DNA of 64,000 bases from Candidatus Magasanikiibacteriota bacterium (GCA_017991415.1 JAGOQR010000004.1:17549-81548); one strand, 5' to 3'; numbered from the stretch's first letter, positions 5,958 to 40,292 are shown. Program-made: numbers and translations. Notes: generated by a model not told the origin, from the sequence alone.

Positions 5958-5986
5958 TTGACTTATGTTTGAAAGTGGTATAAAAT
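5958..5986 (+). promoter_or_regulatory. Sigma70-type promoter for the mraZ operon
   Basis: -35 TTGACT (5958-5963), then a 17 bp spacer, then -10 TAAAAT (5981-5986). Confidence 0.5.
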
Positions 5987-6010
5987 GGATTGTAGTGGAG
6001 TGAAGTGGGG
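5974..6010 (+). promoter_or_regulatory. Direct AGTGG repeats (candidate MraZ boxes) overlapping and downstream of the mraZ promoter
   Basis: AGTGG at 5974, 5994 and 6004 (spacings 20 and 10 bp; the last reads AGTGGGG). MraZ is known to bind direct GTGG(G) repeats in its own promoter. Confidence 0.4.
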
Positions 6011-6044
6011 AAAATATAGCTTACGTTCAAAAATCCTATCATTA

Positions 6045-6479
6045 CGTATGTTCATTGGTGAATATAGTCACAACGTAGACGATAAAGGCAGAATGGCAAT
6101 TCCTGCTAAATTTCGTCGTGAACTTAATAAGGGTGCAGTTGTTACTCGTGGTCTAGATAACTGTCTTTTTTTATATACCAAAACTGAATGGGAAAAATTA
6201 GCTGAAAAATTGGCAGCATTACCTATTAGTCAATCTAATACGAGAGCTTTTTCTCGTCTTATGCTTGCAGGAGCTATGGATGTGGAGTTGGACAAACAAG
6301 GACGAGTAATTTTACCAGAGTATTTGCGTACTTTTGCTGGAATTAAAAAAAGTTTAGTTATTGCAGGTTTGTATAATCGATTAGAAATTTGGGATACAGA
6401 AGTATGGAATAAATATAAAAATCAAACTGAAGCTGAAAGTGGCGCAATTGCCGAGAGAATGGGTGAGCTAGGGGTTTAA
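6045..6479 (+). CDS. mraZ: Transcriptional regulator MraZ
   Basis: MFIGEYSHNVDDKGRMAIPAKFRREL...GRVILPEYLRTFAGI shows the duplicated MraZ/SpoVT-AbrB motif. The track start at 5985 is over-extended into the promoter, so ATG 6045 is preferred. Confidence 0.85.
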   Translation, partial: RMFIGEYSHNVDDKGRMAIPAKFRRELNKGAVVTRGLDNCLFLYTKTEWEKLAEKLAALPISQSNTRAFSRLMLAGAMDVELDKQGRVILPEYLRTFAGIKKSLVIAGLYNRLEIWDTEVWNKYKNQTEAESGAIAERMGELGV

Positions 6480-6490
6480 TAATTCAACCT

Positions 6491-7417
6491 ATGAAACATG
6501 TACCGGTATTACTAACAGAGACGATTGATTCTTTACAATTAAAACCTGGAATGAATGTTATTGATTGTACGCTCGGTGATGCGGGCCATAGCGAAGCGAT
6601 GCTTGAGAAAATTTCTCCTCAGGGAAAATTGCTTGGTATAGATTTGGATCCAGAGGCTGTGTTACGAGCTAAAAGATTTTTATATCGTTTTGAAAATCAA
6701 ATTCTGCTGGTAAGAGATAATTTTGCAAACCTAGAAGAAATCATGAGCAAAAATAATTTTTTGCAAGTAGATGCGATTCTTATGGATTTAGGCTGGTCTT
6801 CGCCTCAATTTGAGGAAAGAGGTAGAGGCTTTAGTTTTTTAACAGACGAGCCGCTTGATATGCGGTATGGTGTGGGTGAGATGTTAAAAGTTCAAGGTGA
6901 GGAAAGTGTAACAGCCGCAGATATTGTAAATTCTTATTCCGAAGATGAGCTCAATCGAATTTTTAAAACGTACGGAGAAGAAAAATTTAGTAGAGATATA
7001 GCTAGGGCAATAATGGTATATCGAAAAAATAAAAAAATAGAGAAAACAGCCGAATTTACCGAAATAATTTTACAAGTCTATAGAGAAAAATTGCATACTG
7101 AAAAAGAGGTTCCGTGGTTAGGTGGCTTGCACCCAGCTACAAAAATTTTTCAAGCGTTGCGCATAGAGGTAAACCGAGAGTTGGAAAGTTTAAAAAAAGT
7201 GTTACCTCAGGCAGTAGAAGCGTTGCAAAGTGGCGGGCGACTCTCAGTAATCACCTTTCATTCACTCGAAGATAGAATAGTAAAACAATATTTTAAATCA
7301 GTCGAACATAAAAAAATAAAATTAGTAAATAAAAAACCTATTATTGCCACCGAAGCAGAGCTAAAAAATAATAGCAAAGCTCGCAGCGCAAAATTAAGGG
7401 TTGTAGAAAAAATTTAA
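6491..7417 (+). CDS. rsmH: 16S rRNA (cytosine1402-N4)-methyltransferase RsmH (MraW)
   Basis: MKHVPVLLTETIDSLQLKPGMNVIDCTLGDAGHSEAML..., canonical RsmH, lying immediately after mraZ. Confidence 0.9.
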   Translation: MKHVPVLLTETIDSLQLKPGMNVIDCTLGDAGHSEAMLEKISPQGKLLGIDLDPEAVLRAKRFLYRFENQILLVRDNFANLEEIMSKNNFLQVDAILMDLGWSSPQFEERGRGFSFLTDEPLDMRYGVGEMLKVQGEESVTAADIVNSYSEDELNRIFKTYGEEKFSRDIARAIMVYRKNKKIEKTAEFTEIILQVYREKLHTEKEVPWLGGLHPATKIFQALRIEVNRELESLKKVLPQAVEALQSGGRLSVITFHSLEDRIVKQYFKSVEHKKIKLVNKKPIIATEAELKNNSKARSAKLRVVEKI

Positions 7418-7426
7418 TTTATATAT

Positions 7427-7786
7427 ATGTCACTCAAACGCCAAATTCAACACAAGTATCAAAATTTCAAATTTTCTATTCGCACTATTGCGGTGCCTGC
7501 TTGGGTTACCTCTCGAGCTATGCGTGTAGGACTATTTTTTACTATATTTTTATTTGGCACGGCCTATATCTTAAACATCACCGCCTCTGCTACAAGTGGT
7601 TATCAGGTAAGAGAGTTAGAAAAAAATACCCAATCATTAGAAATGGAAGTGCGTAAGTTAGAAGTAGAGATAGCCGATAATAGCTCTATTACAAGTATTG
7701 CTTCTCGATTAGAAAAGCTCGACATGACTGAAGCTACAAATATCAAACATGTAGCCATGAAAAGTAGTGTGGTTGCTAAGAATTAA
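7427..7786 (+). CDS. ftsL: Cell division protein FtsL-like (small bitopic coiled-coil protein)
   Basis: 119 aa with one TM (VGLFFTIFLFGTAYIL) followed by a coiled coil (ELEKNTQSLEMEVRKLEVEI). It occupies the conserved position after rsmH. Confidence 0.6.
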   Translation: MSLKRQIQHKYQNFKFSIRTIAVPAWVTSRAMRVGLFFTIFLFGTAYILNITASATSGYQVRELEKNTQSLEMEVRKLEVEIADNSSITSIASRLEKLDMTEATNIKHVAMKSSVVAKN

Positions 7787-7801
7787 AATTTATTAATTTA
7801 A

Positions 7802-7832
7802 AAAAATCCCTCTGAGTCAGAGGGATTTTTTA
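7802..7832 (+). terminator. Strong rho-independent terminator
   Basis: aaatccctct-gagtc-agagggattt followed by ttttatt. Confidence 0.8.
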
Positions 7833-7893
7833 TTAGCTTTTAATATGATATACTAATAGTAAATCATATTTACCATAGTCTGTATAAATTGGT

Positions 7894-8253
7894 ATGGGAA
7901 TTTTAATTTTGCAACGTCTATTCTTAGAAGCCATTTTGGATATTTTTTATTTTCCAATTTGGTGGTATAGCAAAGGCGCTCTCTATGCCATAAAAAAATG
8001 TTTTGGTTTTTTCAAACAGGGGAATGCAAATCTAGCCCCTGGTTTATGGCTGGCCAATTTATTTGTGCCAATGTTTGGTCAGTTTGATTGGGAAGGTCGT
8101 ATTGTGAGCTTTTTCATGCGTCTTGTGCAAACTATTGTCCGTGCGTTTGGCCTTCTGATATGGCTCATATTTTGTTTGGCTTTATTTATTATGTGGCTAT
8201 CTTTGCCAGTAGTAGTATTTTATGGACTTGTTTTTTGGTCTCATTCAAATTAG
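7894..8253 (+). CDS. Hypothetical small membrane protein
   Basis: 119 aa with 3-4 predicted TM segments (FYFPIWWY..., LIWLIFCLALFIMWLSLPVVVFYGLVFW). It directly precedes the Clp-like gene. Confidence 0.5.
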   Translation: MGILILQRLFLEAILDIFYFPIWWYSKGALYAIKKCFGFFKQGNANLAPGLWLANLFVPMFGQFDWEGRIVSFFMRLVQTIVRAFGLLIWLIFCLALFIMWLSLPVVVFYGLVFWSHSN

Positions 8254-8268: not shown

Positions 8269-11049
8269 ATGGATTTCAAACAATCATCGCCGCTTAATAT
8301 ATTGCCCTGTACTGTATGCCAATATGGCAGTCTGAGTAATATAAAAAAATGTGCCCAATGCAAGGGGATGTCTATTGGGTTTGCTCAGCGTGGGCTGTGG
8401 TTATATTGGAATTATCCACTTACTAGATATCATTTGGCTCTCCAGACTGGCAGAAGAATCCTAAACCGAGTGCGACTAATAACTGCGTTTGTGCTCTGGC
8501 TGAATGCTTGGATTTGGATGGGATTTTTAATATATAAACAGAATCATAATTATAGGACGTTGCTTGATCCGCTTCAGTGGGATGATTTTTTGAGTAGTAT
8601 AAATAATTGGGCTGTATTTTTATTTTGGTTTGGTGTGGCAACCTTATTATATATATGGTATCGAATTATTAGAAAAAAAGAAGCGGTTGGAAACCCAAAG
8701 CTATTTACATATAATTATAAAAATAAAAATGAGAATGAGAGTGATGCTATTAACCTTCAATCTTGGGCAGCTGTGCAAAAAATTTCTCGAAGAAAAAAAT
8801 GCAATATTGCAGACTCTTTCACCGATGAAGCGTTGGCGGTGCTCGCCAAAACATACCGATTTGCTGATAAAAATAGAATTAAAGAATTAAGGCCTGAGCA
8901 TTTATTCTATAATTTATTGTCGTTTAACAGGATTAGTAATATTTTTATCAGATTAGGAATTCCAGCCAGTGCGTTGCAGAAAGAATTAGAGACAATGTTG
9001 CAGGTAGATAAAAAACAAACTGCGTATAAAGGTGTGGCACCTGTTGTCCCTGTTGATTTTTATCAGATTATTTTTAAGGCCTATGAAGAGGCATACTTAG
9101 CCAAGCAAGATTATATAAGTGTAACTGAGTTATTGCTTGTTACGCTCAAAGAAAATCCCGCTTTGGCAGAAGTGCTGTTTAATTTCGATATTACTGAGCG
9201 TCAAATTACAAATGTAATTGAATGGGCGAGAATGAAAGAGAAAATGTATCGCGATTATATAAAATTTGCAAAGGCAGCGAGTCATCATTCAAAATATGGT
9301 ATGGATAAGGCTATGACTGCCTTGGCAACGCCGTATTTAAATAGTTTTAGCTCCGATGTTACTATGTTGGCGCATTATGGTCAGTTAGAAACTTGTGTTG
9401 CTCGTACGAGCGAAATTGATGAAATTTTTCAGATTATTGAGGGTGGTCAGAGTAACTTGTTGCTTGTTGGTGATCATGGTGTTGGCCGAAAAACTATTAT
9501 CGAAGGTATTGCACAAAGCATGATTGAAGACGAGGTCCCTGATGCCTTAAAAGATAAAAGATTGGTTCGATTAAGTGTTTCGGCGCTTTTATCTGGCACT
9601 ACTCCAGAAGGGGCAGTAGAACGATTGCGTCGAATTATGGAAGAGATGTCTCGCGCGCGCAACGTGGTGTTGTTTATTAATAATTTACATGAGTTAATTG
9701 GTGTTTCTGTTGGAGAGGTGGGTAGTCTTGATATCGCTGGCACACTCGCTGAATTTTTGAATAATAAAAGATTTTTAGTTGTTGCTACGACTACGCCCGA
9801 AGATTATTCACAGCATTTTTTGGCTTCATCGGTTCGGGATGTTTTTGTTAAAGTTGATATTGCCGAAATGAATCAGGATCAAGCAATTCAAGTGCTTGAA
9901 TCAAGAGCGGGCATTTTGGAATATAAACAAAATGTATTTTTTTCGTATTCTGCCATAGAAAAATGTGTTGAGTATGCTGCGAAATTTTTTCATGAATCTT
10001 TTTTGCCTGGCAATGCTTTGGAACTGCTTACTGAAGCGGCTGCGTTTACTCATAATAAAAAAGGTTCTCATACTATTGTTACTAAAGAAGAGGTGGCAGC
10101 AGTTGTTACTGAAAAAACAAAAATTCCACTTTCTGCTATATCGAGCAATGAATCTGATAAGCTTATGCGTCTAGAGGAAGAAATGCGAAAGCGGGTGATT
10201 GGACAAGAAGAAGGCGTGAGTGCAGTGGCTAATGCATTGCGCCGGGCCAGAGTAGAAATGCGGTCTAGTAAAAGACCTATCGCAAGCTTTTTATTCTTGG
10301 GCCCAACTGGTGTTGGAAAAACAGAGCTTGCCAAAACAATTGCCGACATATATTTTGGTGGTGAGCACATGATGATTCGTTTGGATATGAGTGAATACCA
10401 GGAAAAATCCAGTATTTATAGGCTTATTGGTATGCCTGGTGCTAAAGGTACAGGCATATTAACGGAAGCAGTGCGCAAAAGTCCGTTTTCTTTGGTGCTC
10501 CTTGATGAAATAGAAAAAGCTGATCCTGATGTACTCAATCTATTTTTACAAGTAATGGATGATGGTCGGTTGACTGATAGTGCTGGCCATGTTTTTGATT
10601 TTACTAATGTGATCATTATTGCCACTTCTAACGCAGGCACTGCTTTTGTCCAGGAGCAAAATAGAAAAGGAATGTCACACGAAGAATTACTCAATCAGTT
10701 ATTGCATACAGAACTTAAGCAGTATTTTCGACCAGAATTTTTAAACCGATTTGATGGCGTTGTGTTATTTAATGATTTAAAACGTGAAGATATCAAAAAA
10801 ATCTCCGCACTCATGTTTGCTCGTATTGCTCAAGATATAGAAAGTAAAGGTATAACACTGGTTGCTACCGATGAAGCCTTAGAATTTTTAGCCGACGCTG
10901 GTTTTGATCCAGAATTTGGTGCCAGACCGATGCGACGGGCTTTGCAAGAGCGAGTAGAAAATAAGATGGCTGAATTGTTTTTACAAGGTAAAATAAAAAG
11001 AGGAAGTACCGTAACTATTGGAGCTGGTGGCGCTATTCTGGTAGAATAA
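8269..11049 (+). CDS. Membrane-anchored Clp/Hsp100-family AAA+ ATPase (Zn ribbon + 2 TM + Clp_N-like + degenerate D1 + canonical D2)
   Basis: N-terminal CxxC...CxxC (CTVCQYGS...CAQCKG), then two hydrophobic segments, then a Clp_N-like repeat (FTDEALAVLAKTYRFA). D1 has Walker A GDHGVGRKT and Walker B region LFINNLHEL in place of FIDELH. D2 is canonical ([26 protein letters not shown]). Confidence 0.8.
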   Translation: MDFKQSSPLNILPCTVCQYGSLSNIKKCAQCKGMSIGFAQRGLWLYWNYPLTRYHLALQTGRRILNRVRLITAFVLWLNAWIWMGFLIYKQNHNYRTLLDPLQWDDFLSSINNWAVFLFWFGVATLLYIWYRIIRKKEAVGNPKLFTYNYKNKNENESDAINLQSWAAVQKISRRKKCNIADSFTDEALAVLAKTYRFADKNRIKELRPEHLFYNLLSFNRISNIFIRLGIPASALQKELETMLQVDKKQTAYKGVAPVVPVDFYQIIFKAYEEAYLAKQDYISVTELLLVTLKENPALAEVLFNFDITERQITNVIEWARMKEKMYRDYIKFAKAASHHSKYGMDKAMTALATPYLNSFSSDVTMLAHYGQLETCVARTSEIDEIFQIIEGGQSNLLLVGDHGVGRKTIIEGIAQSMIEDEVPDALKDKRLVRLSVSALLSGTTPEGAVERLRRIMEEMSRARNVVLFINNLHELIGVSVGEVGSLDIAGTLAEFLNNKRFLVVATTTPEDYSQHFLASSVRDVFVKVDIAEMNQDQAIQVLESRAGILEYKQNVFFSYSAIEKCVEYAAKFFHESFLPGNALELLTEAAAFTHNKKGSHTIVTKEEVAAVVTEKTKIPLSAISSNESDKLMRLEEEMRKRVIGQEEGVSAVANALRRARVEMRSSKRPIASFLFLGPTGVGKTELAKTIADIYFGGEHMMIRLDMSEYQEKSSIYRLIGMPGAKGTGILTEAVRKSPFSLVLLDEIEKADPDVLNLFLQVMDDGRLTDSAGHVFDFTNVIIIATSNAGTAFVQEQNRKGMSHEELLNQLLHTELKQYFRPEFLNRFDGVVLFNDLKREDIKKISALMFARIAQDIESKGITLVATDEALEFLADAGFDPEFGARPMRRALQERVENKMAELFLQGKIKRGSTVTIGAGGAILVE

Positions 11050-11061
11050 TACAAAAATTTT

Positions 11062-12066
11062 GTGCTTTATTTTGTAATTACATTTTTATTATCGGTAGCG
11101 TTAACCTTTCTGGTGAGAAAGGTGTCTTTGCGACTTGGTATTGTAGATCGTCCAGATGGAGAGCGGCACCTGCATGCAAAGCCAACACCGCTGTTGGGTG
11201 GGGTGGCTATTTTTGTTTCATTTTGGTTAGTCGTTCTTTATTTGATATTGTATCATCCAGTTCAAGGTATTGATAGGATAGCTAATTCTTTGGGGTTGGC
11301 CCTACTTTCTTCGTTTATCCTCATGCTCATTGGTATTGCCGATGATATTCGTCCTTTTTCGGCTCGAGCTCGTTTGGGAATGGTTGCTGCGGCTATTCTA
11401 ATTAGTTCGCTGTACCCCTGGATTGCAAAAATAACGAACCCTTTTGGGGGGTATATTGAAATTACAGAGTTGTTAAGCAAAGTCATTGTATTTTTTTGGT
11501 TTTTAGGAATGACGTATACAACCAAAATACTAGACGGTTTAGATGGTTTGGCTACGGGCATTGTTTCTATTGGAGCTTTTGTCATTGTTCTTCTTACATC
11601 AGTCACTAAATTTTATCAGCCAAATGTTAGTTTGGTATCCTTAGTTTTTTTGGCAGCCTGTCTTGGTTTTCTAGTTTTTAACTTTTATCCAGCTAAAATA
11701 TTTTTGGGAGAAAGTGGCAGTATGTTTATTGGTTTTATGTTGGCAGTTCTGGCAATTATCGGTGGTGGCAAACTAGCCACAGCCCTCCTTGTTATGGCTA
11801 TTCCGATGCTCGATTTATTACGGGTAATATTTATTCGGTTGCGCCGAAAGCAGCCGTTGTTTGTTGGGGATAGAGAGCATTTGCATTTTCGACTTGTAGA
11901 TTCTGGTTTTAGTCAGAGAAAAACAGTTATCGTTTTGTATATTTTATCTTTTTTGTTTGGTTTAACGACTTTGTTTTTACAAAGTCTGCAAAAATTTTAT
12001 GCACTTTTGTTTCTAGTTGTAATTATGGCTATTTTGAGTCATATTATTGGTAAGAGAACAATATAA
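11062..12066 (+). CDS. Polyprenyl-phosphate sugar-1-phosphate transferase, MraY/WecA family (motifs closer to MraY)
   Basis: 334 aa, ~10 TM. HAKPTPLLGG (compare MraY HxKxGTPTMGG), ILDGLDGLATG, GESGSMFIG, EHLHFRL (compare HHHFEL). Lies in dcw context. Confidence 0.7.
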   Translation: MLYFVITFLLSVALTFLVRKVSLRLGIVDRPDGERHLHAKPTPLLGGVAIFVSFWLVVLYLILYHPVQGIDRIANSLGLALLSSFILMLIGIADDIRPFSARARLGMVAAAILISSLYPWIAKITNPFGGYIEITELLSKVIVFFWFLGMTYTTKILDGLDGLATGIVSIGAFVIVLLTSVTKFYQPNVSLVSLVFLAACLGFLVFNFYPAKIFLGESGSMFIGFMLAVLAIIGGGKLATALLVMAIPMLDLLRVIFIRLRRKQPLFVGDREHLHFRLVDSGFSQRKTVIVLYILSFLFGLTTLFLQSLQKFYALLFLVVIMAILSHIIGKRTI

Positions 12067-12078
12067 ATTATTACTACT

Positions 12079-12549
12079 ATGGGTGAATCTAAAGTTTTTA
12101 AAACATGGCATCTTATTTTGTTGGCAGCGCTGGTTCTAATAGCAGCAGGTCATAAAATTTACGGATCTTTGTGGGTTAAAGGAACTGTAAGTATTGCTGG
12201 CAAGGACGTGCGAGTTTTGATAGCCGATACATATAAACACCGTTTGCAAGGGTGGAGTGGTAAGAAAGACATGGGAAAGTATGGCGGGATGTTATTTGTA
12301 TTCCCTGATGCTAATCGTCATGCTATGGTAATGAGAGATATGTACTTTCCATTAGATATAGTTTGGATAAATGGAGAGACTGTTGTCGATATTGCCCCTA
12401 ACCTGGCTCCAGAAGCGGGTATAGCAGAGGAAAATTTGATTGTTTACCAGGCCCGAACTACCTCGACACTCGTTTTAGAGTTGCCAGCTGGGTTTATGGC
12501 TCAAACTGGTTTAAAAATAGGGGATAAGGTCCAGATAGTCAAAGACTAA
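12079..12549 (+). CDS. DUF192 family protein
   Basis: 156 aa with an N-terminal TM, then VLIADTYKHRLQGWSGKKDM...MLFVFPD...MRDMYFPLDIVWI, as in DUF192 (COG1430). Confidence 0.65.
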   Translation: MGESKVFKTWHLILLAALVLIAAGHKIYGSLWVKGTVSIAGKDVRVLIADTYKHRLQGWSGKKDMGKYGGMLFVFPDANRHAMVMRDMYFPLDIVWINGETVVDIAPNLAPEAGIAEENLIVYQARTTSTLVLELPAGFMAQTGLKIGDKVQIVKD

Positions 12550-15624: not shown

Positions 15625-15678
15625 GTTGTTTAATTTTATATAATTTTATATACTGAGACAGTAGATATACAACATGTG

Positions 15679-17781
15679 ATGTACCTTATTTTTTTCCTAG
15701 TGTATGTATTAGTGTTTGGTTATCTTGCCTCTTTTATTTTAGGCAAGTTTTTTGGTTTTACTAATAATTTTTCCAAAAGAGTATTGGGAATTTTTTCTGT
15801 TTTTGTTAGTTTGGGATGGTTTTCTGGAGCAGCAATTTTATTTGTACCATTGCATGTTTGGGTTTGGGTTGGAATTTTTGTTTTAAATTCTTTATTTTAT
15901 TTTTTCTTGGCTCGTTGGGCAAAGAAAAGAGAGGGTGTTGCGAATACAGTTTCTTATAATGATGAACTGGGCGGGGAGTGGCTTTCAGGTGACAAAAGCC
16001 TTGCTTTATTTTTTTTAGTGCTTATGTCGGTTGGTTTTTACCTCCTTTATAACTCGAAGAGTGGTGCTGTATTACTTACACCGTGGCAAACTATCAATTC
16101 AACGTATATTATTATTTTTCTTCTTTCAACCTGTGCGCTTGGCTTGCTTATTTTTTCTAAATTAAAAACAACCACTATACTACTATTTGTAGTTCTGCAA
16201 ACTTTTTTATTACACAGCTATTTACCTGCCTCACATACGCTCATTTATGGCGCTGATGGGTGGAGGCATATAGCCAATGAAGCGCGGTTTCAAGAAGGCA
16301 AGGGCTTCCTCGAAGCAAAACTTTCACCGCCAAAAGATAGTTCAGTGCCAACAGTCAATATAGCAGGTGTTGGATCAAAAATTGGCCAACTCTCATATAG
16401 TAGTTTTTGGTCTACCAACGTACTGCTTGCCAAGATTTTTAATCAGAATCTAATCGTAATAACAAAATGGTTTTTACCTATTGTTTGGTCGTTGGTTTTT
16501 CCATTAGTTTTATTTGAACTTGTTATAGTATTGGGCCTGAGTAGAAAAAAATCTTTATTTATTTCGTGGCTTAGTTTGTTGCCGTTTGCCTGGCATGCAG
16601 CAGGTGCATTTAGTCTACCTGTTAACTTTGGTTTGCTTATCTGGCTATTTTTAATAACGCTCATTTTAAAAAGAATCAACGCGCCTCGCACAGAGCAAAT
16701 ACCAATACTCGTTTTAGTGGGGGTAGGTTTAATTTTTGGCTATGCGCTCTATTTTATTTTATTTTGGTTTGCATGGTTTGTGGCCGAAGTTTTTATCTAT
16801 ATCTCTTCGAGAAAAGAAAAATTATTAATTAATTTTCGGTTCGTGCCTGTGCTTATAGCAATAGGTGCTATGGCTCTTATTCCAATTATAGAATTTATAT
16901 TTGGTTATAGTAGTTTTGATAGGCATATATATTGGTTCGATCAGGCGAAGCAACTCGTGGGGAACATATCTGGTTTTTATTTGGCACAGGGTCCGCGTGC
17001 ACACGATATTGTGTTTGGCAATATTATTTTTAACCAAACTCCTGCCTCTGCTTTTGTACCAACTGTCATTACATATTGGCGATGGTGGATTGTGGTGTTT
17101 GCTGTAAGTTTTTTTATCATATCTGTATATGGTTTTATAAAAATTTGGCAAAAGAAACAGAGTATTTTTGATTGGCTGCTTGTTATTGCTGCCACCTGTA
17201 TTGGTGGATACTTTATTACTAATTATTTTTTAACAGGGTCTCATATTTTGGCCAGACGATTAGATGGGGTGGTTGTTTTATTTTTATTAATGCTATTTTG
17301 TTATGGTTTATTTGGTATTTTTAGGCAGTCTGTGAAATATTACTGGCGTGTCTTGGGTTTATTTGTATTTTCGGTAGCTATCTCTGCTTCGTATTCTTTG
17401 GGTCCTGATACAAACACGGTAAGCGTCAATCAGTATCAAGCAGCGCAGCATGTCTGGGATCAAGAAAAAAATAATTCTCAAAAATGTGTTTTGGGCGATA
17501 CGTATCCCTTGCTTGCCCTCGAAGCTATTTCGGCAAAAGAAGTTATCGGAGGAAATTTTCCGATAGATGCTAATTTTGGTCAGCCAGAACGGGTAGAATT
17601 ATTTGCGCAAACAAGTGTGGCTATTAATGAACAGCTGCTTAGTAGGGCAGGTCAGCTTACACAATCAGATCATTGTTGGTTTATTGGCAGTACTGATAAT
17701 TTTAAAAAACAAGGAATTTTAAGTACAGGTGATTTTAAAATTTTTGATGACACAGCAGTGGTGCGATATAATATTTATTAA
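15679..17781 (+). CDS. Large polytopic membrane protein (possible GT-C-like glycosyltransferase/polymerase); function unknown
   Basis: ~700 aa with at least 14 hydrophobic segments and then a ~150 aa soluble C-terminus. ATG 15679 is preferred over GTG 15676. Confidence 0.5.
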   Translation: MYLIFFLVYVLVFGYLASFILGKFFGFTNNFSKRVLGIFSVFVSLGWFSGAAILFVPLHVWVWVGIFVLNSLFYFFLARWAKKREGVANTVSYNDELGGEWLSGDKSLALFFLVLMSVGFYLLYNSKSGAVLLTPWQTINSTYIIIFLLSTCALGLLIFSKLKTTTILLFVVLQTFLLHSYLPASHTLIYGADGWRHIANEARFQEGKGFLEAKLSPPKDSSVPTVNIAGVGSKIGQLSYSSFWSTNVLLAKIFNQNLIVITKWFLPIVWSLVFPLVLFELVIVLGLSRKKSLFISWLSLLPFAWHAAGAFSLPVNFGLLIWLFLITLILKRINAPRTEQIPILVLVGVGLIFGYALYFILFWFAWFVAEVFIYISSRKEKLLINFRFVPVLIAIGAMALIPIIEFIFGYSSFDRHIYWFDQAKQLVGNISGFYLAQGPRAHDIVFGNIIFNQTPASAFVPTVITYWRWWIVVFAVSFFIISVYGFIKIWQKKQSIFDWLLVIAATCIGGYFITNYFLTGSHILARRLDGVVVLFLLMLFCYGLFGIFRQSVKYYWRVLGLFVFSVAISASYSLGPDTNTVSVNQYQAAQHVWDQEKNNSQKCVLGDTYPLLALEAISAKEVIGGNFPIDANFGQPERVELFAQTSVAINEQLLSRAGQLTQSDHCWFIGSTDNFKKQGILSTGDFKIFDDTAVVRYNIY

Positions 17782-18824: not shown

Positions 18825-20939
18825 ATGGATGCTCATAGTGAAAGTAACGAAAGGAAACCTGTTTCTCTAGATAACACTAATACAGAGATCAATTTTTTTG
18901 CGTCTACAAATTTTCGCAATACTAATCGTAAATTTGGTATCAAGCTCGATGATCGTCGTCGCCATATGTATGTGGTTGGAAAAACTGGTATGGGCAAGAC
19001 AACGCTTCTGGAGAATATGGTGCTTAACGATATCTATGCAGGGCATGGCGTAGGAGTAGTGGATCCTCATGGAGACTTTGCCGAAAAAATTATCGATTAT
19101 ATTCCTCCCAATCGTATTAATGATGTTGTTTATTTTAACCCATCGGACATTGATTATCCGATCGGTTTTAATATTTTAGAAACTATCGATCCTCGCTATC
19201 GTCATTTGGTAGCTTCGGGTCTTATGGGTGTATTCAAAAAAATATGGCCAGATGTGTGGAGCGCGCGTATGGAATATATTTTGAATAATACCTTGCTTGC
19301 GTTACTCGAATTTCCAAATACTACACTTCTTGGTATTAATAGGTTGCTTGCCGATGATGCGTATCGTAAGCGAGTAGTGCGCAACCTTAAAGATCCGGTG
19401 ATTCGTTCTTTTTGGGAAACAGAATTTGCTGGCTATAACGATCGGTATAAGCAAGAAGCAGTCGCTCCAGTGCAAAATAAAATTGGTCAGTTTTTATCTG
19501 CTTCAGTTATTCGTAATATTGTGGCTCAGGTTAGGTCTCGTATCAATATACGAGAAATAATGGATACCAAAAAAATATTTATCATGAACCTCTCAAAAGG
19601 TAGAATTGGTGAAGATAATTCTCGTCTGTTGGGTGGTATGCTTATTACCAAAATTCAGCTTGCAGCCATGGAAAGAGTCGATACTATAGAAAAAGACCGT
19701 AAAGATTTTTTCTTATACGTAGATGAGTTCCAAAATTTTGCTACAGAAAGTTTTTCTAATATCTTATCCGAAGCCCGTAAGTATCGCCTGGATCTTATCA
19801 TGGCCCATCAGTATATGGAGCAGCTAGATGAGACAGTGCTTGCAGCGGTAATCGGTAACGTTGGTACGCTTGTTACGTTTAGAGTAGGTTCAACTGATGC
19901 CGAAATTTTAGCCAAAGAATTTGCGCCTACTTTTTTGGAAACAGATTTGGTAAACCTTACCAAATTTCAAATTTATTTAAAATTGATGATCGACGGTGTA
20001 GCATCGCAGCCATTTTCAGCAAACACATTATCTCCAATTAATTTATCTACAGGTAGTCTCGAAAAAGTTGTTCGTGTTTCTCGAGAACGATATGCAACTA
20101 ATAGAGAAAATATAGAAGATAAAATAATGCGTTGGACTGGTATAGACAGCAAAGGCTCTGATGCCGATGCAGAAGATGGAAGTGATGATAGAGATGAAGA
20201 TTATACCGAAGATGAAGAAGGAATGCCTGTTAGAATTACACCAATTAAAAAAGAAGTGCCAGAGCCAGTCGAACCTCCTCCGCCAGTGCCACCACCAAGT
20301 AAACCAGCCGTTGTAACAGCTCCCCCTGTTGCGCGAGAACCAGAAAAAAAACCAGAACCAGTTGTGCCTCAAAAACCAAAACAAGATCAACCAAAACCAC
20401 AATCACAGCCGCAATCTGGCAGAAATGATAATAACAAAAAAAACAACAATAATCAGAATAATCAAAATAATAATAAAAACAAAGATAGAGATCGCAATAG
20501 AGATCGAAATAAACAGCAAAATTCTGAAAAGAATAAAAAACCTTTGGACATTAGGCAGAGTACGCCTGTTGCGCTTGTTGATGCAGGTCAAAAAGGAATT
20601 AGCTTGTCTCAAGCTATGCAAACAAACAAACAGGCAGTACCTGTTTCAGAACCTTTTAAATTTAATAACCCGCAGATGGGTGTAGTTCAAGAGGTGCAAG
20701 AGGTATATGACGAACCAAAAAATAGTGAGCAGGAGAGTGTTTTGGTGCCAGTCTCAGCAGAACCTGTTATTAGTCAGTCTGCCCCAATTTACGAGGAAAA
20801 ACGAGAAGAAGCCCAAGTTAAGCCAATTCCACCCTCAAATACACAAGATGTTTCAGAGGCAGTAAAAGGGCATAGTCGACATAGTAGCGGGCATATTCCT
20901 CCAAACAAAGTGGTAAAAATTGACGATAGTGCTGTTTAG
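18825..20939 (+). CDS. TraD/VirD4-like (type IV coupling protein-like) P-loop ATPase with long disordered acidic/Pro/Asn-rich C-terminal tail
   Basis: Walker A VVGKTGMGKTTLL and Walker B FFLYVDEFQNF, with overall resemblance to TrwB/TraD DNA-binding ATPase domains. The last ~270 aa are low complexity (DADAEDGSDDRDEDY, PPPPVPPPSKP, NNNQNNQNNNKNKDRDRNRDRN). Confidence 0.55.
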   Translation: MDAHSESNERKPVSLDNTNTEINFFASTNFRNTNRKFGIKLDDRRRHMYVVGKTGMGKTTLLENMVLNDIYAGHGVGVVDPHGDFAEKIIDYIPPNRINDVVYFNPSDIDYPIGFNILETIDPRYRHLVASGLMGVFKKIWPDVWSARMEYILNNTLLALLEFPNTTLLGINRLLADDAYRKRVVRNLKDPVIRSFWETEFAGYNDRYKQEAVAPVQNKIGQFLSASVIRNIVAQVRSRINIREIMDTKKIFIMNLSKGRIGEDNSRLLGGMLITKIQLAAMERVDTIEKDRKDFFLYVDEFQNFATESFSNILSEARKYRLDLIMAHQYMEQLDETVLAAVIGNVGTLVTFRVGSTDAEILAKEFAPTFLETDLVNLTKFQIYLKLMIDGVASQPFSANTLSPINLSTGSLEKVVRVSRERYATNRENIEDKIMRWTGIDSKGSDADAEDGSDDRDEDYTEDEEGMPVRITPIKKEVPEPVEPPPPVPPPSKPAVVTAPPVAREPEKKPEPVVPQKPKQDQPKPQSQPQSGRNDNNKKNNNNQNNQNNNKNKDRDRNRDRNKQQNSEKNKKPLDIRQSTPVALVDAGQKGISLSQAMQTNKQAVPVSEPFKFNNPQMGVVQEVQEVYDEPKNSEQESVLVPVSAEPVISQSAPIYEEKREEAQVKPIPPSNTQDVSEAVKGHSRHSSGHIPPNKVVKIDDSAV

Positions 20940-34824: not shown

Positions 34825-35556
34825 ATGCAACCATTAATTAGTGTAATTATTCCAGTTTTTAACCACGCTCATACACTTAAAGCCTCTATAGAGAGTGTTT
34901 TTCGTCAAACCTATCGACCTCTCGAAATAATTGTAGTTAACGATGGCAGTACAGATAATTTTGATCAGGTGGTCGATGAATGTTTGCAACTTACCGAAAA
35001 CAATTGTATTGGTGCAGGAAGTTTGTTATCTATATTGTCTCAAGAAAATAGTGGTGCGCCAGCTGCGAGAAATAAAGGCTTTGCCGCTTCCAAAGGTGAG
35101 TATGTTATTTTTTGGGATGCAGATACCATGGCCGAAAATACTATGTTGCAAAAAATGTTTGACGCTCTGCAAAAAAATCCGCAAGCTGCTTATGCGTATA
35201 GTCAATTTAAATTTGGTTGGAAGGTTATGAAAAGCCAGCCGTTTGATGCAGAAAAATTAAAACAGCTAAACTATATAGATGCTACCTCGCTCGTTCGTCG
35301 CTCGGCTTTGAATCCTACTCCGTGGGATGAAAAATTAAAGCGTTTTCAAGATTGGGACCTGTGGCTTGGTTTGTTGGAGAAGGGGAAAACAGGTGTTTTT
35401 GTGTCCGAAGTTTTATATGCAAAAATAGTGAAAGGGAGAATGGGTATAAGTAATTGGTTACCTAGTTTTATGTTTAAGTTACCGTGGAAGACGAGTGGGG
35501 TAAAGAGGTATGAAGAGGCGAGGAGTGTTGTTTTGAGGAAATATAAAATAATATGA
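34825..35556 (+). CDS. Glycosyltransferase family 2
   Basis: ISVIIPVFNHAHTLKASIESVFRQTY...VVNDGSTDN...FWDADTMAE. GT-A fold with a DxD motif. Confidence 0.8.
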   Translation: MQPLISVIIPVFNHAHTLKASIESVFRQTYRPLEIIVVNDGSTDNFDQVVDECLQLTENNCIGAGSLLSILSQENSGAPAARNKGFAASKGEYVIFWDADTMAENTMLQKMFDALQKNPQAAYAYSQFKFGWKVMKSQPFDAEKLKQLNYIDATSLVRRSALNPTPWDEKLKRFQDWDLWLGLLEKGKTGVFVSEVLYAKIVKGRMGISNWLPSFMFKLPWKTSGVKRYEEARSVVLRKYKII

Positions 35557-36326
35557 ACTTGTTTTTTGAAACAAAATTAGCAGACAAATATACAAACCTT
35601 TCGCAAAAAGTAAGAGTTTTGACGGAAGATTGGGTCGATAGACAAGTTTATTGTCCAAACTGCGGGCATCTGGAAATTAATAAGTACGAAAATAATAAAC
35701 CCGTCGCTGATTTCTTTTGTTCTAATTGTAAAGAAGATTACGAATTAAAAAGTAAAAAAGATTCCGTTGGAGTAAAAATAATTGATGGCGCTTATCGAAC
35801 AATGATTGAAAGATTGCAAAGTACGAATAATCCAAATTTCTTTTTACTAAATTATGATTTAAGAGATTTCTCTGTTTTAAATTTTCTTGTTATTCCAAAG
35901 CACTTTTTTGTTCCGGGTATTATTGAAAAACGTAAAGCATTATCACAAACGGCTAGACGTGCTGGCTGGATTGGTTGTAATATTTTATTACAAAGTATTC
36001 CACAAACAGGAAAAATATTTTTTATAAAAAATCGTCAAATTGAATCAAGAGAGAAAGTCCTCGCAGGATGGAAAAAAACATTATTTTTGCGTGAACAAAA
36101 GGAGATTTCCGCAAAAGGGTGGCTGCTTGATATTATGAGGTATATAGACTTGCTCGGAAAGAAAGAATTTGTACTAGACGATGTTTATGCTTTTGAAAAA
36201 CCTTTAAGTAAATTACATCCTGAAAATAAACATGTTAAAGAAAAAATTCGTCAGCAATTACAAATCCTGCGCGATAAAGGTTACTTGGATTTTGTTTCTA
36301 TAGGGGTATATAGATTAGTAAATTAA
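35553..36326 (+). CDS. DpnI-like / Dam-replacing (DRP) family methyl-directed restriction endonuclease (G-m6A-TC specific, Type IIM)
   Basis: 257 aa. SQKVRVLTEDWVDRQVYCPNCGH...PVADFFCSNCKEDYELKSKK...ARRAGWIGCNILL...KEKIRQQLQILRDKGY closely parallels S. pneumoniae DpnI (ILTEDWVYRQ.YCPNCG...KIRQQLQILRDK), as recalled from memory of the DpnI sequence rather than a search. The start overlaps the GT2 stop by 4 nt. Confidence 0.75.
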   Translation: MNLFFETKLADKYTNLSQKVRVLTEDWVDRQVYCPNCGHLEINKYENNKPVADFFCSNCKEDYELKSKKDSVGVKIIDGAYRTMIERLQSTNNPNFFLLNYDLRDFSVLNFLVIPKHFFVPGIIEKRKALSQTARRAGWIGCNILLQSIPQTGKIFFIKNRQIESREKVLAGWKKTLFLREQKEISAKGWLLDIMRYIDLLGKKEFVLDDVYAFEKPLSKLHPENKHVKEKIRQQLQILRDKGYLDFVSIGVYRLVN

Positions 36327-38373: not shown

Positions 38374-38619
38374 ATGTATTACCTCTATATCCTGGAATGT
38401 GCAGATAAAACATTGTATACTGGTATCACCGTAGATTTAGAACGAAGAGTGCGCGAACACAATACCTCGGCTATTGGTGCAAAATATACGCGTGCCCGAA
38501 GGCCTGTGCGACTCGTATATAGTAAAAAATTTCGCAATCGGTCTACCGCTTCCAAAGCGGAAAGTAAAATAAAAAAACTGAGCAGGGAAGCAAAGCTACA
38601 TTTAATTTCTCTCGTATGA
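38374..38619 (+). CDS. GIY-YIG nuclease family protein (UPF0213-like)
   Basis: YLYILECADKTLYTGITVDLERRVREHN is a GIY-YIG core. ATG 38374 is preferred over GTG 38362. Confidence 0.85.
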   Translation: MYYLYILECADKTLYTGITVDLERRVREHNTSAIGAKYTRARRPVRLVYSKKFRNRSTASKAESKIKKLSREAKLHLISLV

Positions 38620-40292
38620 CGCAAGATCAGGCGCTTGATATTTTAAAAACTGGCGCTAATGTTTTTTTAACTGGTGAGCCTGGAGCAGGTAAAACACATA
38701 CCATCAATCAGTATGCGTCTTATTTGCGTACGAGAGCTATAGAGCCATCTATTACTGCTTCTACAGGTATTGCCGCTACTCATTTGGGTGGTATGACCAT
38801 TCATTCCTGGACTGGCATTGGTATTAAAAAATACTTGGATAAATATGAGTTAGATAAAATTTCTTCTACCGAATATCTGGCCAAACGTATTCGCCGCGCC
38901 AAGGTTCTTATTATCGACGAGGTGTCTATGCTTGGTCCCGAAACACTCGATATGGCCGATGCAGTTTGTCGAAATATTCGTCAAAACAATGACGCCTTTG
39001 GTGGGTTGCAAGTTATTTTTGTTGGTGATTTTTTTCAATTGCCGCCAATTGTGCGAAACGAAACAAGCCAAGACCCGCAAACCTCGATGCTCCAAGCGCC
39101 CAAAGCTCGTTTTGCCTACGACGCATCTGCGTGGCAGAGAGCCAGGCCAGTTATTTGTTATCTTACCGAGCAACACCGCCAAGATGACGATGCTTTTTTA
39201 CGTCTTCTTTCTGCTATTCGTACTAATAGTTTTGGCAGTTCTCATTTAGAAGAAATTAAAAACAGAAAAATATTTAGTGATAAGGGGATGGATAAAGCGG
39301 TAAAATTGTATACTCGTAATATAAATGTAGATCGAACTAATGATGAAATGCTTGCAACGGTGGTAAATCGACCAGTTACTTTTGAGATGAAAACAAAAGG
39401 TGCGCCAGCGCTCGTTGCAGCTCTGCAAAAAGGGTGCCTGTCTCCCGAAAAATTAATTCTCAAAGTTGGTGCCAAAGTAATGTTTACTAAGAATAATCCT
39501 AAAGAAGGATTTGTAAATGGTACGCTCGGTACGGTAGAAGGTTTTGATACATATATTGGTCTACCAATTATACGAACAAACGATGGTCGTAAAGTTATGG
39601 TAGAAGCTATGGATTGGAGTGTAGAAGAAAATGGTAAACCGCGCGCCACGATAACTCAGGTACCGCTCCGGCTCGCATGGGCAATTACGGTGCATAAAAG
39701 CCAAGGCATGAGTTTGGAAGAAGCGGTTATGGACCTAAGCGATGTGTTTGAGTTTGGCCAGGGGTATGTGGCCTTATCTCGTGTCCGTAGACTATCGGGG
39801 CTTCATTTGCTTGGCTGGAACGAGCAGGCATTTCAAGTTCACCCAGAAGTACTCCAAAAAGATAAAGATTTCCGAGTTAATTCCGAAGCTACAGAGCTTG
39901 CTTTTGGCAAAATTTCAAAAGAAGAATTGGCTATCATGCACAAAAATTTTATTAAAGCTTGTTCGGGAGATGAAGTGTCTGAAAAAGAAAAAGTAGTTTC
40001 CAAAGCAAATTCTGATAGTGAGGAGATAGTATACGCGCCAGTGACAGGGCCAGACTATGTACCAGGAAAAAGAAAAAATAGAACAAGTACCATGAAAGGT
40101 AAGGGGCATGAAAAAGTTCGAGAAAAACACCCTAATGCGTTTAAGACATGGAGTGAGCAGCAGGACGAAGAGCTCAAAGAATTTTTTGCCAACGGCGTAC
40201 CGCTCCAAGAAATTGCCGAAACGCTTGGTCGCAAATCGGGTGCTGTGGCTATGCGGCTTACTAAGCTTGGGTTGATGGAAGATTTGGATTAA
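38616..40292 (+). CDS. Pif1/RecD-like SF1B DNA helicase with C-terminal HTH domain
   Basis: Walker A LTGEPGAGKTHT, motif II IIDEVSML, motifs VFVGDFFQLPP and ITVHKSQGMSLE. The C-terminus WSEQQDEELKEFFANGVPLQEIAETLGRKSGAVAMRL is helix-turn-helix-like. The start overlaps the GIY-YIG stop. Confidence 0.85.
   Translation: MTQDQALDILKTGANVFLTGEPGAGKTHTINQYASYLRTRAIEPSITASTGIAATHLGGMTIHSWTGIGIKKYLDKYELDKISSTEYLAKRIRRAKVLIIDEVSMLGPETLDMADAVCRNIRQNNDAFGGLQVIFVGDFFQLPPIVRNETSQDPQTSMLQAPKARFAYDASAWQRARPVICYLTEQHRQDDDAFLRLLSAIRTNSFGSSHLEEIKNRKIFSDKGMDKAVKLYTRNINVDRTNDEMLATVVNRPVTFEMKTKGAPALVAALQKGCLSPEKLILKVGAKVMFTKNNPKEGFVNGTLGTVEGFDTYIGLPIIRTNDGRKVMVEAMDWSVEENGKPRATITQVPLRLAWAITVHKSQGMSLEEAVMDLSDVFEFGQGYVALSRVRRLSGLHLLGWNEQAFQVHPEVLQKDKDFRVNSEATELAFGKISKEELAIMHKNFIKACSGDEVSEKEKVVSKANSDSEEIVYAPVTGPDYVPGKRKNRTSTMKGKGHEKVREKHPNAFKTWSEQQDEELKEFFANGVPLQEIAETLGRKSGAVAMRLTKLGLMEDLD

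Follow-up and report, generated by a model that had tools for sequence, protein, structure and literature searches.

Hsp100/Clp proteins are textbook threading motors, and the tyrosines of their pore loops are considered essential. In ClpB and Hsp104, a coiled-coil M-domain is the structural basis of coupling to Hsp70. FtsH, a membrane-anchored ATPase, likewise has small proteins or membrane proteins as partners. In NSF (D2) and PEX1/PEX6 (D1), a ring that does not hydrolyze ATP keeps its fold, and often nucleotide binding, and serves assembly, leaving the other ring as the motor. To our knowledge, a D1 that is dead throughout a family is not the described norm among bacterial Hsp100 proteins. 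TorsinA is related to Clp/Hsp100 proteins, and its missing aromatic pore loops have been taken as evidence against processive unfolding (PMC5425593). Here we describe a Clp/Hsp100-like ATPase, which we call CLP, encoded in a 64,000-nucleotide stretch of DNA from Candidatus Magasanikiibacteriota bacterium (GCA_017991415.1 JAGOQR010000004.1:17549-81548; hereafter the window, at its full length). With a probability of roughly one half, we read CLP as a ClpP-independent, single-motor, membrane-tethered Hsp100 derivative that acts with a small membrane protein, smTM, as a remodeler or switch rather than as a threading unfoldase.

CLP Is a Class-I Clp/Hsp100 Derivative

An earlier reading of the window from its sequence alone (the sequence-only reading) had described a 926-residue protein with a CxxC-x10-CxxC ribbon, two transmembrane (TM) helices, a Clp_N-like repeat, and two AAA+ modules, and this layout held up in all its parts. 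The open reading frame (ORF) is intact, starts with ATG, and has an AAGGAG ribosome-binding site 8 nt upstream. From the N terminus, its product has a zinc ribbon of the C4 type, a membrane hairpin of two helices, and a Clp N-domain, followed by D1 and D2:

8269..11049, + strand: CLP, 926-residue membrane-tethered Clp/Hsp100-like ATPase (ORF, Pfam, NCBIfam, AlphaFold2, Foldseek)
8308..8361, + strand: C4 zinc ribbon, residues 14-31 (C14, C17, C28, and C31 invariant)
8476..8670, + strand: TM helical hairpin, residues ~70-89 and ~113-134, predicted N-in/C-in (hydropathy, AlphaFold2, charge)
8818..9273, + strand: Clp N-terminal domain, residues ~184-335 (ClpA/ClpC alignments, PF02861 in homologs, AlphaFold2)
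9337..10188, + strand: D1 AAA+ module, residues ~357-640, predicted to be catalytically dead, without M-domain (motifs, alignments)
10189..11046, + strand: D2 AAA+ module and D2-small, residues 641-926, catalytically intact as judged by motifs (Pfam, motif statistics)
10429-10455, + strand: truncated, tyrosine-less pore loop of D2, residues 721-729 (alignment)

Pfam matched AAA_2 at residues 669-829 (E=1.8e-53), ClpB_D2-small at 837-917 (E=1.3e-25), and AAA_lid_9 at 536-635. NCBIfam models and PDB sequences also matched both AAA+ modules, and the closest PDB sequences were those of ClpC, ClpB, and ClpA. Scores against the named families were below equivalog level. The ClpA model (TIGR02639) gave 511 bits, with a cutoff of 993, and residues 189-917 aligned without a break to model positions 6-732 of 734; the ClpB model (TIGR03346) gave 533 bits, with a cutoff of 1232, and matched in two stretches. 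When an AlphaFold2 model built from an alignment of 48 family sequences (mean predicted local distance difference test score, pLDDT, 80.2) was searched with Foldseek, the top matches were again ClpC, ClpB, and ClpA. CLP has the composition of class-I Clp/Hsp100 proteins: an N-domain precedes two AAA+ modules, of which D2 is of the AAA_2 type and is followed by ClpB_D2-small. It is a class-I derivative that is the equivalog of no named member. The M-domain is not present: CLP has ~60 residues fewer than ClpC at that position, where helices 581-598 of the AlphaFold2 model run directly into strand 602-604.

Scanning genomes with N-terminal motifs specific to the family, we found relatives of CLP in at least 148 species-representative genomes, and a profile of the N-terminal region retrieved 273 clusters (50% identity) at E<=1e-10 from 1.84 billion cluster representatives. 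Across these genomes and clusters the family is under purifying selection, and full-length relatives of ~900-940 residues occur in hundreds of clusters. Among the cluster representatives listed, 68 are at least 850 residues long, most with the same layout of zinc ribbon, TM hairpin, N-domain, D1, and D2. CLP-bearing genomes with meaningful names are all Magasanikbacteria, Patescibacteria, or Parcubacteria, and the named family members include Uhrbacteria and Kerfeldbacteria. Many locus records are titled "uncultured Gammaproteobacteria bacterium" (L006, L008-L011, L014, L015, and others), and L013 is titled "Candidatus Udaeobacter sp."; such titles look wrong for these metagenome-assembled genomes, and the Gammaproteobacteria titles look like a deposit artifact.

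Databases label homologs of CLP "ATP-dependent Clp protease ATP-binding subunit." We found no paper describing the family in literature searches for Magasanikbacteria or Patescibacteria Clp proteins and for the division and cell wall (dcw) cluster of the Candidate Phyla Radiation (CPR). PADLOC returned only partial D2-domain matches for CLP (DolB and PDC-M37B, residues ~600-790). With these partial matches, no PADLOC match for smTM, and a housekeeping synteny, membership in an anti-phage defense system was rejected.

D1 Appears Catalytically Dead throughout the Family

We aligned the motifs of CLP with those of the ClpB encoded in the window, 120 database homologs (54-96% identity), and 77 species-level genome orthologs (49-75%). 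For a wider set we used the 68 representatives of at least 850 residues, which share no more than 50% mutual identity. In D1, Walker A reads GDHGVGRKT (nt 9469-9495) where GEPG(V/T)GKTA is expected. The sequence-only reading had taken the arginine as an insertion before the Walker A lysine. That interpretation is ruled out by the alignment, which is ungapped up to the following EG motif and gives two substitutions, K to R and T to K. The lysine is kept in 75 of the 77 related species, and the K-to-R change is confined to the small subclade of the window CLP. The Ser/Thr position is replaced by K, R, M, or N in 67 of the 77.

Walker B is FINNLH (nt 9673-9690) instead of FIDELH, as had been noted earlier. 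Across the family this motif takes the form F-I-[HN]-N, with H, N, S, or Q at the Asp position and N at the Glu position in 71 of 77 species; the DE pair occurs in 0 of 68 representatives. The Arg-finger motif ALERRF has become S-[VIL]-[RK]-D-V-F (SVRDVF in the window CLP). The pore loop AGTK(Y/F)RGEFE has become (S/A)GTTP(A/E)GAVE (SGTTPEGAVE in the window CLP), with proline in 62 of 77 species and an aromatic residue in only two of the 68 representatives.

CLP therefore does not have the set of motifs found in a competent ClpA, ClpB, or ClpC D1, namely GK[ST], hhhhDE, and Arg fingers. The proposal that D1 is dead survived proper alignment, which left both Walker motifs disrupted and added the loss of the Arg fingers and the pore-loop tyrosine. 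Since D1 lacks both the acidic pair of Walker B and the Arg fingers, and in most members also the Ser/Thr of Walker A, we judge it catalytically dead across the family and, on these motifs, unable to hydrolyze ATP. Conservation of D1 is nevertheless 73% at the top-residue level, and most family members retain its P-loop glycines and lysine.

D2 Retains Its Catalytic Motifs but Has a Shortened Pore Loop

The earlier description of D2 as fully canonical stands for the ATPase site and fails for the pore loop. Walker A (GPTGVGKT), Walker B (LLDEIEKA), sensor 1 (TSN), the FLNRFD Arg finger, and sensor 2 (GARPMRR) are all intact. Catalytic residues are conserved in 67-68 of the 68 representatives, and the Arg finger, R827, is invariant. 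The pore loop GAPPGYVG-x3-GG, however, has become G-x-P-G-x-K-G-[TS]-G (GMPGAKGTG in the window CLP). It is four residues shorter and without an aromatic residue in all 120 homologs and all 77 Magasanikbacteria orthologs examined, and it is shortened to 7-9 residues in 50 of the 68 representatives. Judged from these alignments, loss of the D2 tyrosine is widespread and tolerated, not the oddity of one sequence. CLP has neither of the pore-loop tyrosines (D1 KYRG, D2 GYVG) that characterize ClpA, ClpB, and ClpC.

The segment that docks ClpP is also reduced, being 9-10 residues shorter in CLP than in ClpC or the window ClpB. From TSN to RPEF, family members have 31-33 residues (32 in 65 of the 68 representatives) and the window ClpB has 41. 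None of the 68 representatives has a ClpP-type tripeptide, [LIVMF]G[FL], after D2 sensor 1, and in the AlphaFold2 model the site is a four-residue turn, 800-803. Because the ClpP loop is missing, the label "Clp protease ATP-binding subunit" is contradicted, and the current ClpA/ClpC annotations are, on the sequence evidence, misleading. They offer no basis for inferring Clp proteolysis in these genomes.

The N Terminus Contains a Zinc Ribbon and a Predicted Membrane Hairpin

All four cysteines of C14-x2-C17-x10-C28-x2-C31 are invariant in the CLP family. In distant relatives the ribbon takes the form CxxCxGxG-x(5-7)-CxxCxG, and DnaJ_CXXCXGXG (PF00684) is the best or second-best Pfam match in nine of nine tested, although below threshold (E=1e-4 to 4e-3, 18-23 bits, cutoff 32.7). 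BSD2_CRD and Anti-TRAP also match these ribbons, likewise below the Pfam thresholds. The CxxCxGxG..CxxCxG pattern is found in 28 of the 68 representatives and in 19 of the 120 close homologs. The ribbon of the window CLP is degenerate (CTVCQYGS...CAQCKG) and has no PF00684 match.

Kyte-Doolittle peaks place two hydrophobic helices at residues ~70-89 and ~113-134, where the AlphaFold2 model has helices 53-90 and 113-139. The flanks of this hairpin carry five and four Lys/Arg residues, and the 23-residue loop between the helices (90-112) carries two. The Lys/Arg-rich flanks and Lys/Arg-poor loop suggest an N-in/C-in hairpin, which would place both the zinc ribbon and the ATPase body in the cytoplasm. 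A linker (135-183) that is poorly conserved and of low AlphaFold2 confidence leads to the Clp N-domain. ClpA and ClpC align from residues 184-198 onward, homologs carry a PF02861 annotation, and residues 184-335 form eight helices in the model.

A Small Membrane Protein Is the Invariant Neighbor of CLP

Directly upstream of CLP lies a gene that the sequence-only reading had mentioned in passing as a small membrane protein after ftsL:

7894..8253, + strand: smTM, 119-residue membrane helical-hairpin protein (constant neighbor of CLP; AlphaFold2)

Its position was described correctly, and it turned out to be the one invariant neighbor of CLP. To examine gene context, we used the proteins of the window to annotate 80 genome loci, of which 78 had enough sequence around CLP. 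In these Magasanikbacteria loci smTM is directly upstream of CLP in 78 of 78, two apparent misses being ORF-start artifacts, and it often overlaps the CLP start. An smTM homolog also lies immediately upstream of CLP in all seven distant relatives that we examined (L085-L091; E=1e-12 to 1e-31).

smTM had no match in Pfam, NCBIfam, or PADLOC, and its 114 homologs are all annotated as hypothetical. In the AlphaFold2 model, which is very confident (pLDDT 93.9), helices 2-47 and 66-118 are both long, run antiparallel, and are connected by a loop; a Foldseek search with this model gave no significant match. Residues 86-113 form a TM segment with a mean hydropathy of 2.46 and zero charges, and residues 3-24 are moderately hydrophobic with conserved R8, E12, and D16. 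Since residues 25-85 are rich in Lys/Arg (seven, compared with two Asp/Glu), they are probably cytoplasmic. The most conserved positions are P21-x-W23-W24-Y25-x2-G28 together with, in the loop and tip, W52..N55..P59-M60-x-G62-Q63-x-D65..G68-R69..S72..R76..R83, and the tip, PGLWLxNxFVPMFGQxDxxGR, is invariant.

CLP Follows the Head of the dcw Cluster in Magasanikbacteria

The genes on either side of smTM and CLP are as follows:

5985..6479, + strand: mraZ, listed ORF of 164 residues (Pfam MraZ, E=1.4e-42)
6491..7417, + strand: rsmH (mraW), 16S rRNA methyltransferase (Pfam Methyltransf_5, E=1.2e-104)
7427..7786, + strand: FtsL-like bitopic coiled-coil protein (sub-threshold profiles, conserved position after rsmH)
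7801..7841, + strand: intrinsic-terminator-like hairpin, 14-bp stem (7801-7831) and T tail, between the ftsL-like gene and smTM
11062..12066, + strand: GT4, polyprenyl-phosphate sugar-1-phosphate transferase, MraY/WecA superfamily (Pfam Glycos_transf_4, E=9.5e-31)
12079..12549, + strand: DUF192 protein (Pfam DUF192, E=6.4e-25; syntenic)

The order that the sequence-only reading had given, mraZ-rsmH-ftsL-like-smTM-CLP-GT4, is conserved in related genomes, and the loss of gene order named there as a refuting outcome was not seen. The three upstream genes precede CLP in 63 of 67 Magasanikbacteria loci, within 1.3 kb in 59, so that in Magasanikbacteria CLP has a conserved place inside the dcw cluster. 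The ftsL-like ORF matches only below threshold (NCBIfam FtsL_Actino, 27.9 bits, cutoff 55; Pfam FtsL_2, E=0.022). The gene downstream of CLP, separated from it by 12 nt in the window, had been called MraY-like. Its place in the MraY/WecA superfamily was confirmed. The MraY subfamily was not established: NCBIfam scores WecA (113 bits) above MraY (75 bits), both under the cutoff, yet the only PDB matches are MraY (E=4e-13) and GPT. GT4 and DUF192 follow CLP in 53 of 66 Magasanikbacteria loci, GT4 is also found in L088 and L091, and DUF192 is probably the last gene of an smTM-CLP-GT4 unit. In a clade comprising 10 of the 66 loci (FtsW-type), an ORF of 102-117 residues and then FtsW/RodA replace GT4-DUF192. 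Examples of this small ORF are at 10783-11136 in L003 and 10824-11132 in L002, and it had no match in Pfam.

The specific link to division proteins that had been drawn from this arrangement was weakened by three observations. Between the ftsL-like gene and smTM, a hairpin with a T-run is present in 52 of 59 orthologous gaps, compared with 2-6 of 59 in dinucleotide shuffles; its position is conserved and its sequences differ. A block of ~15 kb (murJ, β-CASP, mraZ, rsmH, ftsL, smTM, CLP, GT4, DUF192, rplU, recR, ybaB, and dnaB) is syntenic in the clade, and since the whole region is syntenic, adjacency is weak evidence for function. Finally, four of the seven distant relatives (L086, L087, L089, and L090) have no dcw genes near CLP. 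In L085 and L091 the dcw genes are separated from smTM-CLP by tgt and other genes, and in L088 mraZ-rsmH-ftsL-like precedes smTM-CLP as in Magasanikbacteria. With a conserved terminator in the gap, co-transcription of CLP with the dcw genes would be unlikely, and the dcw-free distant loci show that CLP is not associated with these genes everywhere.

Several further features of the window and related loci were recorded. The mraZ ORF exceeds its 143-residue homologs by ~21 residues, and Pfam matches it from residue 22 onward; translation of mraZ probably starts at the ATG near 6048 (MFIGEY...). Positions 5958-5986 are overlapped by a promoter-like site, and a TGnTATACT extended -10-like element lies at ~7846-7854, after the hairpin between ftsL and smTM. 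TGT (queuine tRNA-ribosyltransferase) recurs upstream of smTM-CLP in relatives outside Magasanikbacteria (L085 4564-5715, L089 2780-3937, L090 3007-4113, and L091 3205-4320); in L085 and L091 it sits between the ftsL-like gene and the smTM-CLP pair. In L090, from Kerfeldbacteria, the CLP homolog is followed by one 171-residue ORF and then by a canonical ClpB-type gene of 857 residues (9333-11906), which indicates that tethered CLP and ClpB paralogs can be neighbors.

The canonical ClpB described earlier in the window (48246-50876, - strand) is indeed present, scoring above the ClpB equivalog cutoff and having a long M-domain, and CLP is not redundant with it. Residues ~737-750 of this ClpB include a 10-residue insertion at the site of the ClpP-docking loop of ClpC/ClpA, and the insertion contains an FGF tripeptide that resembles the VGF of ClpC. 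From its sequence, the protein may be a naturally occurring ClpB that carries a ClpP-type loop. At 15676-17781 (+ strand) is a 701-residue polytopic membrane protein without a Pfam match; an ORF of ~703 residues likewise lies beside dnaB in L001. Elsewhere the window encodes a VirD4/TraG-like coupling ATPase (18825-20939), a DpnI-like endonuclease of the Dam-replacing family (35553-36326), and a PIF1-like helicase (38616-40292).

A Proposed Membrane-Proximal Remodeler or Switch and Its Alternatives

In the mechanism we propose, the CLP hairpin would tether the hexamer with its N-terminal face toward the membrane, as in FtsH. D1 would form a non-hydrolyzing assembly ring that may still bind nucleotide. 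D2 would be the sole motor and would work as an oligomer, because the Arg finger, which is supplied in trans, is invariant. The cytoplasmic tip of the smTM hairpin would dock at the ring entrance of CLP, on its zinc ribbon, or on its N-domain, and smTM would be an adaptor, a regulator, or a client. The module would not degrade proteins, since there is no ClpP docking, and it would not couple to Hsp70, whose structural basis goes missing with the M-domain. Because neither ring has an aromatic pore-loop paddle, a Torsin-like mode of action, in which ATP drives the remodeling, release, or switching of membrane-associated clients, would fit better than processive threading, which we regard as unlikely. 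The recurrent GT4 neighbor and the proximity to the head of the dcw cluster suggest that the cellular process is probably envelope biogenesis; this is the weakest step of the proposal. We suggest, tentatively and by analogy, that smTM and CLP could be a bacterial counterpart of the Torsin-cofactor principle, in which an Hsp100-derived ring no longer threads substrates and serves as an ATP-driven, membrane-proximal switch or remodeler gated by smTM in envelope or division-site biogenesis of the ultra-small Patescibacteria.

Some points weigh against this proposal. About seven of the 68 representatives, all distant, retain GAPPGY or GAPPGF in D2, and because of this minority the ancestral CLP-family protein may have threaded substrates. 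The tyrosine-less loop itself, with a conserved Lys726 and a conserved Tyr717 just upstream, may support residual threading. Since the Walker A lysine is an arginine in the window CLP, nucleotide binding by its D1 is doubtful. CLP, unlike Torsin, keeps its own Arg finger. The TM topology is drawn from hydropathy, charge bias, and AlphaFold2 helices, and contact between smTM and CLP from their invariant adjacency only.

The function favored by the sequence-only reading was a dedicated unfoldase for envelope or division proteins. Its structural premise, a membrane-tethered Hsp100 with a dead D1 and a competent D2, is supported by the sequence, but the unfoldase activity built on it runs against the missing aromatic pore loops. 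In its full form, CLP would be a tethered single-ring threading unfoldase for divisome or cell-wall proteins such as FtsL, FtsW, or a penicillin-binding protein, co-expressed as a dcw member in the slot of ftsI and the mur genes. A catalytically complete D2 would suit such a motor, as would the few distant relatives with GAPPGY. So would the company CLP keeps: mraZ-rsmH-ftsL-like precedes it in 63 of 67 Magasanikbacteria loci and in L088, precedes it with intervening genes in L085 and L091, and one clade has the small ORF and then FtsW downstream. We nevertheless consider this function unlikely, given that all Magasanikbacteria members lack an aromatic pore loop in both rings and have a truncated D2 loop, that a conserved terminator separates ftsL from smTM, that synteny extending to L21, recR, and dnaB makes the adjacency unspecific, and that dcw genes are not near CLP in L086, L087, L089, and L090. 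The same terminator suggests that smTM-CLP-GT4-DUF192 is a separate unit, and would fit a role for CLP as a regulator or assembly factor of GT4 in the synthesis of undecaprenyl-phosphate-linked glycopolymers, all four genes forming one operon. The ATPase would then control the activity, oligomeric state, or turnover of a WecA/TagO/MraY-like membrane enzyme. The 12-nt spacing between CLP and GT4 and the recurrence of GT4 after CLP (53 of 66 loci, L088, and L091) speak for this role, yet GT4 is not adjacent in the FtsW-type clade (10 of 66 loci) or in L085, L086, L087, L089, and L090, and we think it improbable.

To two other explanations we give very little credence. CLP could be an ordinary ClpP partner of the ClpA/ClpC type that has acquired a membrane anchor, forming a membrane Clp protease analogous to FtsH. 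Its full-length, single-stretch similarity to ClpA (511 bits), its best PDB matches to ClpC, and its database label would all be explained. The scores, however, are far under both the ClpA and ClpB equivalog cutoffs, D1 is predicted dead, the pore-loop tyrosines are gone, and the ClpP loop is missing by every measure, with a segment 9-10 residues shorter, a tripeptide in 0 of 68 representatives, and a four-residue turn in the AlphaFold2 model. The degenerate D1 motifs and pore loops, together with a D1 Walker A that varies among species, might instead mark a decaying paralog or a pure scaffold with no enzymatic role. Against decay, the D2 catalytic residues are invariant over 68 representatives at no more than 50% mutual identity, the protein remains ~900-940 residues long in hundreds of clusters, and D1 is still 73% conserved. 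The remodeler or switch remains our preferred account of CLP and smTM.

Comparison with Known Systems

CLP shares with ClpA and ClpC the order of N-domain, D1, D2, and D2-small, a ClpA-like D1-D2 junction without M-domain, and an AAA_2-type D2 with Walker A and B, sensor 1, Arg finger, and GAR sensor 2. CLP adds a zinc ribbon and a TM hairpin, and it differs in its predicted dead D1, in having no pore-loop tyrosine and no IGL/VGF loop, and in scoring about half the NCBIfam cutoffs. CLP resembles ClpB and Hsp104 as an Hsp100 independent of ClpP, in which two AAA+ rings follow an N-domain, and in its very similar D2 core. CLP, in contrast, has no coiled-coil M-domain, a D1 that appears dead, and no pore-loop tyrosines, and it is membrane anchored with an obligate small membrane partner.

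FtsH resembles CLP in placing two N-terminal TM helices on an AAA+ ATPase whose ring entrance faces the cytoplasmic membrane. FtsH, however, has a single AAA module, which belongs to the classical clade, has an aromatic pore loop, and is fused to an M41 protease, whereas CLP is a two-ring Hsp100; Pfam found no Peptidase_M41 match in CLP, which is not an FtsH. NSF and PEX1/PEX6, with their division of labor between rings, belong to AAA+ clades other than that of CLP. An N-terminal C4 zinc module on a chaperone or unfoldase is also seen in the Cys-rich domain of DnaJ and the zinc-binding domains of ClpX and ClpE, although DnaJ has two zinc centers and CLP one.

In the CLP family the ATPase site of D2 is perfectly kept, whereas both pore-loop tyrosines, the active site of D1, the ClpP loop, and the M-domain have been lost; gained in exchange are the zinc ribbon, the membrane anchor, and a small membrane protein as obligate partner. 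For the CPR, whose envelope biology is poorly understood, CLP would be a lineage-specific addition. It also resembles Torsins with their cofactors LAP1 and LULL1, which are related to the D2 of Clp/Hsp100 proteins, act at membranes, have no aromatic pore loops, and require a membrane-protein partner. Torsins are eukaryotic, lumenal, and single-ring and receive their Arg finger from the cofactor, whereas CLP is bacterial, is predicted to face the cytoplasm, has two rings, and carries its own R827. The resemblance is best seen as a functional analogy, not membership. If CLP is active, the path from Clp unfoldase to a membrane-associated ATPase that does not thread would have been taken a second time, independently of Torsins.

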